A stretch of DNA of 64,000 nt from Bdellovibrionales bacterium (GTDB lineage: Bacteria; Bdellovibrionota; Bdellovibrionia; Bdellovibrionales; UBA1609), in the NCBI GenBank assembly GCA_965199825.1, contig OZ241329.1:2240001-2304000 (forward strand), given 5' to 3'. Below are positions 14,748 through 22,136 of the stretch, one piece after another. The notes under the pieces were generated by a model. It was given only the letters and a program-made list of their open reading frames with translations, made no database searches and was not told the origin of the DNA. Position 1 is the stretch's first letter. Each line of letters starts with the position of its first letter. Both the position numbers and the translations under genes were made by a program.

Positions 14748-15179
14748 TTGAAACAAATGTACGACAGTTTTTTTGGATCGGTCAGACGCAAAGTTTCCTT
14801 CACGACGCGCTACGGATTGGTTGTGTTGGCGTTATGCACCATCACCTACGTGGTCGTTGGATATTGGAGCTATATTTTTTCAAAAACAATTTATGGCACC
14901 GTCCTCAGTGTTGAGCGCGTCACTCAAGCCAATTCGATCATCGCGACCAATCGACCGGTGGATCCGGTGCAGCTCTTTTCGTTTGCGGTTTCGTTGCGCG
15001 ATAAAAAAGGCAGCATATGGACTGCGGCAGGTGAAGACCGTCAGTGGGCGGTGGTCAAAGAAGGGCAGTGTATCGAGGCTCGGTTTTATCCTTATCCGCC
15101 TTGGGATTTGGCGAAGTCGGGGACTTATGCGAATGCGCGCCTAATAAGAATTTTTGACTGCGACAGCTGGCCCCTTTAA
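14748..15179 (+). CDS. Hypothetical membrane-anchored protein; stop codon lies in the IS left inverted repeat
   Basis: One N-terminal TM segment, then SFAV..EDRQWAVV..YPYPPW. Confidence 0.7.
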   Translation: MKQMYDSFFGSVRRKVSFTTRYGLVVLALCTITYVVVGYWSYIFSKTIYGTVLSVERVTQANSIIATNRPVDPVQLFSFAVSLRDKKGSIWTAAGEDRQWAVVKEGQCIEARFYPYPPWDLAKSGTYANARLIRIFDCDSWPL

Positions 15180-16197
15180 TTGTTTTTGGCCGAGGGTTTG
15201 CTCTACTGATTATTAATGAATCAGAGAACAAACCCAGTTTGCGAATGTGAAAAACAATCCGGCAAAGAGCGGATGCGCGTTCGCAAGGCCGGATTTTTCT
15301 TTCGTAAATCTGATCACAAAAAGATTCAGCGCTACACTTGTCTTGTGTGCAAAAAAAGTTCCTCAACCGCGACTCGCGAAATTTGTTATCGCCAGAAAAA
15401 AAGATCCTTAAATATTCCTATCTATCACAAACTTTGCGGTGGCTTTTCGAAACGAAGAACTGCTCTCGTCTTGAGAACGAATCGTAAAACTGTGATTCGA
15501 AAATTTCGCTTTCTGGCAAATCTCTCAATTGAGTTTTTTGAACAGCACTCTCAACCGAAAAATATCACCGAGGTGCAATTCGATGATATGGAAACCTTTG
15601 AGCATACAAAGTGTAAGCCGATTTCGATCACCCTTGCGGTCGACAAAAAAACCAGACGCATTCTCGGATTAGAGTGCAGTCAAATGCCTGCAAAAGGGCT
15701 TTTAAGCAAAAAAGCGAAAGTGAAGTACGGGCAACGAAAGGATGAGAGATCCATAGCTCGCAAAAGACTTTTTATTAAAATCAAACCCATGGTCAAAAAA
15801 GATTGCGTCTTTTATTCTGATCAAAATCCTCATTACGCCTCCGATGTAAAAAGACATTTTCAGTATCATGAGCACAAGACCTTTAAGGGAAGAAGGGGAT
15901 GTATAGTTGGCCAAGGTGAATTAAAGAGTGGAGGCTTTGATCCTCTTTTTAGCTTAAATCATACGTGCGCGATGATTCGAGATAATTTAAAGAGGATGTC
16001 GCGAAAGACTTGGTGCACTACCAAGAAAATTCAAGAACTCAGCAATCACTTGGCTATTTACACGGTTTATCACAACCAATTTTTGATAAATCCGAGCAAG
16101 TCCCACCAAATTTTTTCTGATCTGATGGGATTTGAGGATTAAAACCTAGTTCATCCTCTTCAATCATTTTTTAAAAAAACAATTAAAGGGGCCAGCT
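15165..16197 (+). mobile_element. IS1-like insertion sequence (~1.03 kb) with perfect terminal inverted repeats
   Basis: 15165-15187 AGCTGGCCCCTTTAATTGTTTTT is the exact reverse complement of 16175-16197. The repeats enclose one transposase ORF. Confidence 0.88.
15216..16142 (+). CDS. IS1-superfamily transposase (Zn-finger, HTH, RNase H fold)
   Basis: CECE..QRYTCLVCKK Zn ribbon, HTH, VQFDDMETF, FYSDQNPHY, IRDNLKRMSRKTWCTTK. Confidence 0.8.
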   Translation: MNQRTNPVCECEKQSGKERMRVRKAGFFFRKSDHKKIQRYTCLVCKKSSSTATREICYRQKKRSLNIPIYHKLCGGFSKRRTALVLRTNRKTVIRKFRFLANLSIEFFEQHSQPKNITEVQFDDMETFEHTKCKPISITLAVDKKTRRILGLECSQMPAKGLLSKKAKVKYGQRKDERSIARKRLFIKIKPMVKKDCVFYSDQNPHYASDVKRHFQYHEHKTFKGRRGCIVGQGELKSGGFDPLFSLNHTCAMIRDNLKRMSRKTWCTTKKIQELSNHLAIYTVYHNQFLINPSKSHQIFSDLMGFED

Positions 16198-17028
16198 TTA
16201 GAAGTTTAGGGGGATTCTGTTGTTGAGTGGCTGCAGCGGCCGATTATTCTTCGAATACACCTGTCGAAATTGCAGGATTTGGGCCTTCGACATTTCAACA
16301 GGTGTGTTGAGCACATACCATCGTACACCTTCGGTGCATGGTGGAGTGGTCAAGCTTCCGGTGTACATGTAATGAGTCATATGATCAGGCAAAAGGCGCG
16401 AAGGATCAAACAGGGTGTTTGGTTTTTCAACCACCATTCCTTTTTGTTTTGGAAAATTGTCGAAGATATCGCGGATGGTTTGATTTTCTTTACCCACAAT
16501 CAGGATGATCGCCACCACAGCAATTTCGCCATTGTCAGATTTATGAAAGAACTGGGCTTCCATTGGGAGGGAGTTGCCCGAGAGGGTGTGCTCCGAGGAG
16601 GTTCGAAATTGAATATGTGTGAGCGAAAAATTTTGGCCATGAAGTTTTGCACTGCTTTGGCCGCTTGTGCCCACTTCAATAGTGTATCCGTTATCCATCA
16701 CCTTTAATGGCTCGGGACGATAGTTAAAAGAAATTTCGCCCCCACCTTTTGGTTTATGGAATTTCAAATCTACCGGAGATTGGCTTTTGCCGGTGCGGCA
16801 CAAACTAAATTCAGGTTTGATGTCTCCCCAATGTTCGGGCCCAGTATCGCCTTCGTAACTCCAAATTCGAGTGACGGGCGAAACTTTAAACTCGCTCTTT
16901 TGCACTTTTTCGACCACAGGCGTGGGTACCGGTGAAGATTCAACCGGAACAATCACAGGCTCTTTGGGGTCGGATGCACAAGAAACAATAAAAGAAAAAA
17001 CACCGAAAATAAGTAGTCGTTGGATCAT
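16198..17028 (-). CDS. Lipoprotein alpha-carbonic-anhydrase-like protein, predicted catalytically inactive
   Basis: Lipobox IVSC; WSYEG, QSPVD, SEH, YTGSLTTPPCTEGVRW and NNRPLQPLN retained. Zn-ligand His positions are Q140, R142 and Q159. Confidence 0.88.
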   Translation of the reverse strand: MIQRLLIFGVFSFIVSCASDPKEPVIVPVESSPVPTPVVEKVQKSEFKVSPVTRIWSYEGDTGPEHWGDIKPEFSLCRTGKSQSPVDLKFHKPKGGGEISFNYRPEPLKVMDNGYTIEVGTSGQSSAKLHGQNFSLTHIQFRTSSEHTLSGNSLPMEAQFFHKSDNGEIAVVAIILIVGKENQTIRDIFDNFPKQKGMVVEKPNTLFDPSRLLPDHMTHYMYTGSLTTPPCTEGVRWYVLNTPVEMSKAQILQFRQVYSKNNRPLQPLNNRIPLNF

Positions 17029-19764: not shown

Positions 19765-20523
19765 TTGCACAAGATACCGGTTTTAATATTTTGCTACATT
19801 CGGGCTCTTTTTCAATTGTTGTGGCTTGTGTTTCACACCGTAATTGGCGGGTCGATTCTCATTGCCGAAACGTTTTTGATCAAAAATAGAAAGTTTGAAG
19901 ATGCAACCCTCAAGTTTTGGGGCCGGATGCAGCTGTGGCTCACAAACGTGCATGTCGAGGTTGAAAGCGATCAAGTTCCTAACGAAGGCTGTTTGTTTTT
20001 ATTTAATCATGCGAGCTACTCCGATATTTTTGTGCTTTATGGATATTTACCTAAACCTTTTCGATTTGGTGCAAAGATCGAACTTTTTTCGATACCCATT
20101 TTTGGCGCCACAATGAAGAGTGTTGGGGTTTTGCCCATTGTGCGTGATCAGCGAGAGGATGTTTTAAAAGTTTATAAAGAAGCCATCGCGCGTGTTCGAA
20201 ATGGCGAATGTTTTGGGCTTGCACCCGAGGGCACTCGGCAAGACGGCAAAAATTTAGGTAAATTTAAACTTGGGCCTTTTGTTTTTGCTCGCAATGCAAA
20301 TATGCCCATTGTTCCGGTGGTGATGACAAACACCTGGCGGGTTCAACCCAAGGGCTCACCCCTAATGAATGCCAATCATTTTAAAACGGTGATCAAACTC
20401 AAAACTTTAAAACCTATTTATCCAGAGGGGCGCTCGGAGTTTGAGTTAAGGGCAATGGCGTTTGAAGTGATGGATAAGGAATATCATCGATTATTGGAGT
20501 CATCGAATCCATCAATGGAATAA
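19765..20523 (+). CDS. plsC: Lysophospholipid (1-acyl-glycerol-3-P) acyltransferase
   Basis: NHASYSD, AKIEL, APEGTR. Start uncertain; the ORF is open from 19666. Confidence 0.85.
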   Translation: MHKIPVLIFCYIRALFQLLWLVFHTVIGGSILIAETFLIKNRKFEDATLKFWGRMQLWLTNVHVEVESDQVPNEGCLFLFNHASYSDIFVLYGYLPKPFRFGAKIELFSIPIFGATMKSVGVLPIVRDQREDVLKVYKEAIARVRNGECFGLAPEGTRQDGKNLGKFKLGPFVFARNANMPIVPVVMTNTWRVQPKGSPLMNANHFKTVIKLKTLKPIYPEGRSEFELRAMAFEVMDKEYHRLLESSNPSME

Positions 20524-21313
20524 TACGGTCGCGAATTAAAGCCTTAGTTTTTTCGAGATGCAGATAAAGGGTTTTTGCATCGAAGTTTCCATTTCTGTGA
20601 AATAAACCTTCAATCAAAACACGACGAATATCTGTTTGCTCTTTTTCGAGTCGGTTAAAGTTTTTGGCAATGCCCATATTTTTTTGGTGCAAAAAATCGG
20701 CGATGGCACTCTTAAAATCAGTATCCTCAGAAATCTGAAAAATTTCTTTTAGTGCTTGAGTGGTCAGCTGCAGCAAGATTCGGGTGTTGAAGTTCAGAGA
20801 ATCTAATCTTTCTGGCCGCTCCCTCTCGACAGTTTCAAAAACGGTCACAAGTTTTTGCCATTCCGAACTTGTGAGCAATGCATAGACATCAGGCTTTAAG
20901 AGGTTTGCATCTAATTTTCGAATACAGTTTTTATAGATATCCAAATTCATTTCGGCATCCCGCTCTTGATAGCAATGTTCTAATTGAAAGGTTGAAAACG
21001 CTCCTTTTTCGGGATCGAGGACTTCGATCAATTTGGCAAGCTCAGCAATGGCGCCTGGATTTATTTGCGATGTCAGATCAATTTGGAGGGCTAAAATATC
21101 TCCGACCAAATTCATCAAAATCGTATACTCCACTCGGCCTTTTCGGTCGGTTTCAATAAGCTTATTTTCGAGCAGAGATTTTGCGGTTTCTACAGTGTAG
21201 AGGGTCTCAAAGGCGGTGGTGCGGAGAAGCTCAGGCAAAAAATAGGAAGACTCGAGCGAAGTCACACAACTCGCTGACGACCAAAACGAAAATAAAATTT
21301 GAAGCACCAGCAC
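20414..21313 (-). CDS. Hypothetical secreted helical protein
   Basis: 299-aa ORF with an N-terminal hydrophobic signal and no recognised motif. Confidence 0.6.
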   Translation of the reverse strand: MLVLQILFSFWSSASCVTSLESSYFLPELLRTTAFETLYTVETAKSLLENKLIETDRKGRVEYTILMNLVGDILALQIDLTSQINPGAIAELAKLIEVLDPEKGAFSTFQLEHCYQERDAEMNLDIYKNCIRKLDANLLKPDVYALLTSSEWQKLVTVFETVERERPERLDSLNFNTRILLQLTTQALKEIFQISEDTDFKSAIADFLHQKNMGIAKNFNRLEKEQTDIRRVLIEGLFHRNGNFDAKTLYLHLEKTKALIRDRIIPLMDSMTPIIDDIPYPSLQTPLPLTQTPSAPLDK

Positions 21314-21317
21314 GAAT

Positions 21318-22136
21318 TTATTCCTCTCTCAAAATTGGGATGAGCCACTCGGTTTTAAATTTTTTTATAAACAAAGGAACAAGTTCAATCAGTTCGTGAT
21401 GAAGCGAAGATGGGATCACATAATCGGTGTTGATATGAAGTTGGCTTGTATCAAACTGTGCATCTCGCAATCGATTGAAAACAAACTTCGCGCCCCACTC
21501 TTCATTTGTTAACATTTTGTTTGCGGCGGCGATCAGCACTTTGTTTTCGGTGATTTCAGAAATACCGGTTAATCCTTCGCTTAGCGATTCAATAATAGGG
21601 AGAAGAGAGTACACTGTTGTTGCAAAGTGATCCGCCATTGGCCTTGACCATGTTGAATTAAGAATGACATGAAATGGAATCCAATCGGAGGATTTAGTGC
21701 TCGACCAATTCTTCGGTGATTTTTCCCATTGAAACGTCAGGCTGGTTGAATTGATAAGTGCATCTAATTCTTCCAAAATATTTTGCGAATTATAATATTC
21801 TGGAAAATATTCGATCGGAGTCATTCCGGTGAGAGGATTCAGATCTTTTAAGCTGCCAGAAAGCCGCAGCGAGAGCTGATTCCAGTTTTGATTTGATGGG
21901 GTTAAATAAAGATTAGATAAACGCAACCCAACATCATAGATCCGAATGCACCGACTTGTACTTTGAACTTTTTCAATGGCCTCTTTTGCATGTTCCAACG
22001 TGTAGCACGCTCTCACGTAGCCTTGTCTTGCTATCACTTTTTGCACAGCCACCGACTGAAGGTCTGTGTGGCAATCAGCAAAAGCAATTACAAAAGTCAA
22101 AAACTTTATAAATATCAATGGTGCCCCCCGGCTCAT
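21318..22136 (-). CDS. Hypothetical secreted protein
   Basis: 272-aa ORF with a signal peptide ending in AFA. Confidence 0.6.
   Translation of the reverse strand: MSRGAPLIFIKFLTFVIAFADCHTDLQSVAVQKVIARQGYVRACYTLEHAKEAIEKVQSTSRCIRIYDVGLRLSNLYLTPSNQNWNQLSLRLSGSLKDLNPLTGMTPIEYFPEYYNSQNILEELDALINSTSLTFQWEKSPKNWSSTKSSDWIPFHVILNSTWSRPMADHFATTVYSLLPIIESLSEGLTGISEITENKVLIAAANKMLTNEEWGAKFVFNRLRDAQFDTSQLHINTDYVIPSSLHHELIELVPLFIKKFKTEWLIPILREE

Follow-up and report, generated by a model that had tools for sequence, protein, structure and literature searches.

What becomes of a carbonic anhydrase (CA) when the histidines that hold its zinc are gone: does the gene decay, does some catalysis remain, or is the fold kept for other work? 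The question is raised by P0001, a protein encoded in the window, by which we mean the whole stretch of 64,000 nucleotides that was analysed from a Bdellovibrionales bacterium. The relevant features are given below, where the residue labels His64, His94, His96 and His119 follow CA II numbering.

16198..17028, minus strand: open reading frame of P0001 (276 aa), an alpha-CA-fold lipoprotein without the zinc ligands (translation, PF00194, alignment, AlphaFold2, Foldseek)
16978..17028, minus strand: signal peptide, its lipobox IVS-C17 followed by Ala at +2 (sequence; C17 invariant in 32/32 degenerate homologs)
16864..16977, minus strand: disordered linker of 38 aa (residues 18-55) that includes 7 Pro, sequence not conserved (pLDDT about 55, alignment)
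16201..16863, minus strand: alpha-CA domain, residues 56-276 (alignment, pLDDT >90, rmsd 1.4-1.7 A)
16798-16800 / 16336-16338, minus strand: disulfide pair C77 / C231 (alignment to bacterial CAs)
16684..16686, minus strand: Tyr115 replacing the proton-shuttle His64 (translation, alignment)
16609..16611, minus strand: Gln140 replacing the zinc ligand His94, codon CAA (translation, alignment)
16603..16605, minus strand: Arg142 replacing the zinc ligand His96, codon CGA (translation, alignment)
16591-16593, minus strand: gatekeeper E146 (alignment)
16552..16554, minus strand: Gln159 replacing the zinc ligand His119, codon CAG (translation, alignment)
16348-16350, minus strand: gatekeeper T227 (alignment)
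15165..16197, plus strand: insertion-sequence-like (IS-like) element, bounded by perfect terminal inverted repeats of 23 bp at 15165-15187 and 16175-16197

The gene, its fold and its surroundings

P0001 belongs to the alpha-CA superfamily by its match to PF00194 (E 5.8e-35, profile positions 2-248 of 254). The AlphaFold2 model, built on a 32-row alignment, had a mean pLDDT of 89, the domain scoring above 90 and residues 1-50 about 55. Foldseek placed the model closest to the bacterial enzymes of Neisseria (1kop), Thiomicrospira (4xz5), Thermovibrio (4c3t) and Persephonella (6im0) at 1.4-1.7 A and a probability of 1.00. The identity to the bacterial CA structures was 36-41%, and that to human CA II 29-30%. 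The ESM Atlas features of P0001 pointed to ordinary CA clusters only.

The alignment of P0001 to 4c3t and 6im0 indicated that Gln140, Arg142 and Gln159 all stand on zinc-ligand columns (3/3), which agreed with the original prediction, and a recount from the start at 17028 gave the same codon positions. These replacements are read in the motifs HIQFRTSSEH and MEAQFFH, and Tyr115 of NGYT is aligned to the shuttle histidine of NGHT, as had also been noticed. The disulfide cysteines and the motifs QSP, SEH, GSLTTPPC and NRPLQ were seen intact in the translation, as expected, and the alignment retained E146, H147, E157, H162, T227, T228 and C77/C231. It had further been proposed that four targeted changes were made and that His138 could be an alternative ligand. 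The first idea did not hold, since the degenerate group diverges at further pocket positions, those that correspond to CA II N62, Q67, Q92, V121, L141, V143 and T200. The second is unlikely, since this position is His in just 33% of the strongly degenerate members. Judging from the missing ligands, P0001 very probably binds no zinc and has no catalytic activity.

The view that the reading frame is intact and selected, and is not a product of decay or sequencing error, was borne out by identical bases in a second sample, by the agreement of all seven nearest homologs and by low dN/dS in relatives. A contig from the second sample of the same study (X2) covers positions 16383-16940 at a depth of 11 with zero base differences, and the marks of a pseudogene (stops, frameshifts, dN/dS near 1) were seen neither in P0001 nor in its relatives. 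One polyA RNA run gave two partial reads only, which speak neither for nor against expression, and the promoter scan stayed at chance level (5 vs 7.4).

At the N terminus a hydrophobic stretch is followed by the bacterial lipoprotein pattern [LVI][ASTVI][GAS]C, so that a lipid anchor is predicted; the lipobox named in the original prediction is I14-V15-S16-C17, whose cysteine is present in 32/32 aligned degenerate homologs. By the E. coli rule a +2 residue that is not Asp would lead to outer-membrane sorting, if that rule extends to P0001's group. What had been called a Pro-rich tether turned out to be an ordinary variable linker, which measures 24-107 aa with a median Pro fraction of 0.13 in the lipobox-bearing members of the clade described below and has a pLDDT of about 55 in P0001.

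Astacin, cNMP-binding and AI-2E genes precede the P0001 gene in the same orientation. An operon with the cNMP-binding and AI-2E genes was considered and rejected, since in L173 (P0006), a relative at 69% domain identity and the sole close relative with long flanks, the pair runs towards the CA gene from the opposite strand and is separated from it by two genes. Neighbours across the order differ from genus to genus, being Vut_1 and PhoD-like in one and HGLS/hemB-like in a second, and no conserved neighbour or partner gene, including any signalling, transporter or kinase gene, was found across the order's examined loci. The right end of the IS-like element abuts the CA stop codon and leaves the coding sequence uncut. 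Its transposase-like ORF (15216-16142, plus strand) had no Pfam match, and contig C1 contains five more copies of the element, one of them frameshifted, whose proteins are 57-82% identical. At 20414-22136 of the window, on the minus strand, two ORFs of 299 and 272 aa without a Pfam match form an insertion between genes that are direct neighbours in L173.

Distribution and repeated loss of the zinc site

The homologs carried titles of Bdellovibrionales, Bdellovibrionaceae and Bdellovibrionia and were publicly annotated as carbonic anhydrase. The best 120 proteins of the homolog search, P0001 included, comprised 77 with the triad His-His-His (HHH) and 43 without it. The seven nearest homologs, at 66-72% domain identity, read QRQ in four cases, QRE in one and QHQ in two. 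The pseudoenzyme proposal was to fall if close relatives all kept the triad, and it survives, since 7/7 of them lack it. The conservation of Q/R/Q that had been suggested was found in part: all seven read Q-[R/H]-[Q/E], but position 96 mixes Arg and His, and it alternates between them even within the eight closest sequences.

In the same order, 59 of 301 genomes had a match, one of these to the signal peptide only. From the other 58 genomes, 60 alpha-CA ORFs were read, 17 of them HHH and 43 with at least one ligand replaced, and no internal stop was found in any match among the order's genomes. Because 43/60 copies are without at least one ligand, counts of alpha-CA genes would overstate the capacity for CO2 hydration in this group. 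Two families carry the gene in 23/26 and 7/7 genomes, with 28/30 main copies degenerate, and another family of the order has it in 0/103 genomes. P0001 is the sole alpha-CA match in its 2.84-Mb, 100%-complete genome. Two alpha-CA genes were observed in G090 (L148/L149), which read ERQ and EHQ, and in G121 (L143/L144), where an ERQ copy is accompanied by an unrelated intact HHH copy.

As a control, a contig scan across all species gave 74 HHH among the 80 loci listed, mostly from other phyla; after the four Bdellovibrionota-titled loci were taken out, 72/76 were HHH and 4/76 degenerate among the matches listed. In a metagenome scan, triads were read by pattern for 49/80 loci, with 46 HHH, 2 degenerate and 1 misread. 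Elsewhere in the phylum, 14 further matches consisted of 12 HHH proteins, a lipoprotein reading QHQ and a divergent match that was weak. Eight of those 12 HHH proteins carry an ordinary signal peptide together with the clade's W-x-x-[PT/N]-N-T signature, which suggests that this signature arose before the lipid anchor and before the site was lost.

Degenerate alpha-CAs were also observed outside the clade. In the Rhodocyclales-titled L061:4404-5666 and L073:4053-5666, an Adhesin_E domain (PF16747) is fused to an alpha-CA that reads RRQ or ERH; the tree sisters of these fusions are HHH, which indicates an independent loss in a surface-adhesin-like fusion. Others are L087 and L069 (EHQ, DHH) and P0256, P0287 and P0290 (HRQ, DHQ, QHQ). 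The Rhodocyclales-titled copies suggest that zinc-site loss is recurrent in bacteria and not unique to the window.

A FastTree of 298 domains, calculated with the ligand columns removed, grouped 155 sequences into one clade (support 95), 90 of them degenerate and 65 intact. An IQ-TREE was then made from a thinned set of 84 clade members plus 4 outgroups, with 11 pocket columns removed, and sister pairs of opposite state were kept on purpose. On these 88 rows at least 17 changes between the intact and degenerate states were counted; such counts do not separate loss from regain, and the direction was taken as loss because the outgroup is intact. Six sister pairs of opposite state were marked on the tree (e.g. 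HHH/QKQ, HHH/EKQ, HHH/SRQ, HHH/DHQ and HHH/RRQ), and two or three ligands change in five of them. The sisters P0009 (RRQ) and P0012 (HHH) are 76% identical and differ in all three histidines. A single origin of the loss was rejected, as forcing the 31 strongly degenerate rows into one clade was 538 log units worse (p-AU 1.6e-69). A Dollo count of 30 losses was set aside as inflated by weak branches. Taken together, the zinc site was lost many times independently within the clade, and the gene is mostly single-copy.

In L127 and L130 (G107, G140) and in P0012, all three histidines are kept while the shuttle histidine and rim residues are already gone; it suggests that the rim can decay before the ligands.

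The replacements at the lost site are constrained in kind. Among the 90 degenerate clade members, position 119 was Gln in 77, Glu in 1 and His in 12, so that a replaced residue was Gln or Glu in 78/78 cases. Position 96 was Arg in 34, Lys in 7, Tyr in 1 and His in 48, a basic residue thus taking the place of His in 41/42, and Arg or Lys at 96 was found only together with Gln or Glu at 119 (41/41). On the other hand, ten different replacement residues were counted at position 94, and 119 was the only ligand changed (the eta-CA-like HHQ) in 4/90. The changes from His to Gln and from His to Arg are one-base changes; those to Asn, Asp, Tyr, Leu and Pro are so likewise, yet none of these occurs at 119.

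A lipobox was recognised by pattern in 82/88 degenerate and 36/64 intact clade members, and among the six degenerate misses four are lipoprotein-like by eye and one is truncated. Lipidation as a repeated trigger of site loss was tried and rejected, since the independent pairs gave a sign test p of 1.

Selection, the released rim and the possible work of the fold

Of 88 within-genus pairs, 73 were saturated at synonymous sites, and all pairs come from relatives, P0001's genome being alone in its genus within the set. The Nei-Gojobori dN/dS was 0.007-0.138 over 13 usable degenerate pairs and 0.015 and 0.057 in 2 intact pairs, and the value of 0.007 comes from a pair without all three histidines. 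The dN/dS comparison that had been recommended thus revealed purifying selection in degenerate relatives. In one genus, E-R-Q was fixed in 11/11 genomes despite synonymous codon change that included CGN and AGA. The root-to-tip path was 1.08 in strongly degenerate and 0.81 in intact members, so that some relaxation is real.

The entropy of 51 strongly degenerate and 52 intact thinned clade members was compared. Eight pocket-rim positions reached 2.48 bits in the degenerate against 0.66 in the intact members, the buried core 0.10 against 0.04, and the remaining 186 positions 1.99 against 1.86. The rim is freer than the average position (2.48 against 1.99 bits), which argues against one new ligand for the whole family, and single lineages may have fixed a pocket of their own. 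A plugged pocket, with the work done elsewhere on the protein surface, fits these sequence patterns better than a new ligand site common to the family.

Such a surface may be present. Nine positions (W90, K92, P93, S150, T218, N241, T242, N275 and Y/F276) are kept in both the intact and the degenerate part of the clade and not outside; their entropy is 0.54 and 0.70 bits in the clade and 3.18 bits outside, a circular comparison as the positions were picked from the same alignment. Positions 90, 92 and 93 align with R57, V59 and D60 of the Persephonella CA, which are listed as dimer-interface residues in the available part of PMC7662607 (Table 2). This overlap with a known homodimer interface of bacterial alpha-CAs suggests that the protein binds itself or a partner, the conserved face being perhaps a dimer contact in remodelled form or else a site for a partner. 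The same face also occurs in intact, non-lipidated members of another family, and may be a plain clade signature or the homodimer interface.

No beta-CA match was found in P0001's genome, and a beta-CA is present in 67/80 relatives. It was missing in 11/42 carriers of a degenerate copy and in 0/15 carriers of an intact copy (p 0.051 by Fisher's test); of 5 independent pairs, 3-4 agree with this trend and none is opposite, which is not significant, and 3/11 of the genomes concerned are less than 90% complete. Compensation by beta-CA was rejected, as the trend runs the opposite way. If the trend is real, lineages that need little CO2 hydration would have dropped the beta enzyme outright while the alpha fold stayed, which would fit a second job for the alpha fold alone. 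Besides P0001, a single CA-like gene was seen in this genome. It encodes a gamma-CA/YrdA-like protein of 170 aa, recognised by a regular-expression match to its His motif, at G000 C1:2417882-2418394 (minus strand), outside the window.

On balance, we lean with moderate confidence towards the reading that P0001 has no catalytic activity and is retained as a lipoprotein of the envelope, where a surface outside the old active site would serve in binding or structure. The replacements would stabilise the metal-free core: Gln119 would keep the hydrogen-bond geometry with Glu117, and Arg or Lys at 96 would put a cation at the place of Zn2+, beside Glu106, and position 94 and the rim would be left to drift. 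The lipid anchor and the flexible linker would present the domain at the membrane, probably at the outer membrane's periplasmic face or at the surface. The work would be done by the face W/F90-K92-P93, T218, N241-T242 and the C-terminal N-[YF], the least certain step, and CO2 hydration would be a dispensable second function. The original prediction of a repurposed, membrane-tethered binding or sensing protein is accordingly kept for a selected and tethered pseudoenzyme (lipobox, low dN/dS), but the pocket as a shared binding or sensing site is disfavoured by the variable rim, by the Arg/His mixture at 96 and by the lack of a conserved signalling neighbour across the examined loci.

A bolder version, which we regard as rather doubtful, is that predatory Bdellovibrionota made a periplasmic CA into an envelope adhesin or scaffold for prey contact or envelope remodelling and shed the catalytic site at least 10 times via His119 to Gln and His96 to Arg/Lys, the same route as in animals and apicomplexans. 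If true, the living intermediates and the 76%-identical intact sisters would show how a pseudoenzyme originates without gene duplication.

It is also conceivable, though unlikely, that the pocket itself was repurposed, with Arg or Lys at 96 as the cation instead of Zn2+, and binds bicarbonate or another anion in a sensor or solute-binding lipoprotein. A basic residue at 96 was gained repeatedly (12 changes on the thinned tree; R34 and K7 of 42 replaced), E106 is kept in 100% and T199 in 97% of degenerate members, and Y64, K92, E94, R96, Q119 and H200 are invariant in 11/11 genomes of the E-R-Q genus. RPTP-gamma has likewise been argued to bind HCO3- without histidines, as far as the available text of PMC7541084 goes. 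However, the more-than-average variability of the rim speaks against such a pocket, His96 is kept in 48/90 degenerate members and the eight closest sequences mix it with Arg, and His to Arg is a one-base change. There is no conserved transporter or kinase neighbour in the examined loci, the AI-2E and cNMP-binding genes face the opposite way in the 69%-identity relative, and the beta-CA trend hints at a low demand for CO2 or bicarbonate. Residual or different catalysis, such as metal-free CO2 hydration, an esterase, a dioscorin-like reductase or a rebuilt metal site in the E/D-H-Q members, appears improbable. The gatekeepers and the disulfide are intact, the His-His-Gln eta-CA is active and H94N CA II retains reduced activity (PMC5437132 and PMC6158936, in their available parts), and dioscorin (4twl), a close structural match of P0001, is reported to have CA and dehydroascorbate reductase activity (PMC7358276, available part). 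The missing beta-CA match in P0001's genome points the same way. Against this, P0001 is without all three histidines and the shuttle, whereas the Toxoplasma protein TgCA_RP is inactive after two substitutions already, according to the part of its description available; the rim is unconstrained, unlike an enzyme site, and a gamma-CA-like gene with a His motif, a pattern match only, is present.

Zinc-free ribosomal paralogs offer an analogy for a further idea, namely that zinc sparing or the avoidance of mis-metallation selected for removal of the metal site from an envelope protein that is abundant and has a second role. It is compatible with a dead, surface-working lipoprotein, and the change of all three histidines between the 76%-identical sisters, and of two or three in five marked pairs, would suit it; we nevertheless find it very improbable, as neutral release with structural filtering explains the changes equally, given that synonymous sites are mostly saturated (73/88 pairs). 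Hardly credible is a dispensable enzyme slowly heading to loss, its core kept by folding constraints alone. The patchy distribution (59/301 genomes), the longer branches of degenerate members, the co-loss of beta-CA and the insertion element against the stop codon would be expected of it, but the dN/dS falls to 0.007 in a pair lacking all three histidines, no match has a stop or frameshift, and two almost wholly degenerate families show near-complete retention. A gene without function would not have its core maintained by selection, and the dN/dS values already largely refute this explanation.

If the preferred reading of a dead lipoprotein with a role for its surface is correct, repeated loss mostly without duplication would mean that a second function, independent of catalysis, resides in the alpha-CA scaffold. 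Matched active and dead pairs are available for finding this function and for testing which substitutions stabilise a metal-free fold.

Comparison with known carbonic anhydrases and related proteins

P0001 has the fold, the disulfide, the gatekeepers and an export signal in common with the bacterial periplasmic alpha-CAs (4c3t, 6im0, 1kop, 4xz5), and the intact members of its own clade are ordinary HHH enzymes by sequence. Unlike these enzymes, it has neither the three zinc histidines nor His64, and it carries a lipoprotein anchor with a long linker and the clade-specific W-x-K-P, N-T and C-terminal N-[YF]. In the available part of PMC5746736, bacterial alpha-CAs are treated as exported enzymes. 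We found no bacterial alpha-CARP and no description of P0001's family in the literature searched, which reached few subscription papers and no supplements, and a zinc-less alpha-CA lipoprotein is apparently undescribed in bacteria.

The CARPs (CA-related proteins) VIII, X and XI of animals are conserved proteins with the alpha-CA fold minus one to three zinc histidines, as in P0001. CARP X and XI carry Arg and Gln at the zinc sites. P0001 differs from them in belonging to a group of independent origin inside the bacterial alpha-CAs, with many losses and intact sisters: on our tree, which was built without animal CARPs, it is nested among intact bacterial CAs, with HHH sisters in the marked pairs. 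Its gene is also single-copy, with no active paralog in most genomes. A CARP has been defined as an alpha-CA homolog without at least one zinc histidine and without activity, known from vertebrates, insects and nematodes as well as viruses (PMC5437132, available part), and CARP VIII is reported to bind ITPR1 (PMC9032886, available part). P0001 lacks 3/3 zinc histidines, and selection despite this loss was measured in its relatives.

The receptor phosphatases RPTP-gamma/zeta and vaccinia D8 resemble P0001 in joining a zinc-less CA fold to the membrane through a long disordered stalk, whereas P0001 is a stand-alone lipoprotein without a transmembrane or signalling domain. The CA-like domains of RPTPs bind contactins (PMC10815196), bicarbonate sensing was proposed for that of RPTP-gamma (PMC7541084), and an attachment role of D8 is cited in PMC5437132, each according to the available part of the source.

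The apicomplexan TgCA_RP is described in the available text of PMC5437132 as a GPI-anchored, inactive protein with F94/Q119 and a structural role in an invasion organelle. By that description it shares with P0001 a lipid anchor, Gln119, a variable position 94, a replaced shuttle histidine and the kept gatekeepers, but its anchor is a C-terminal GPI, and it is a eukaryotic protein of the eta lineage in which His96 is kept. P0001 reads Q-R-Q and not the His-His-Gln of the eta-CAs. Judged by its sequence, P0001 is a bacterial counterpart of the animal and apicomplexan CARPs.
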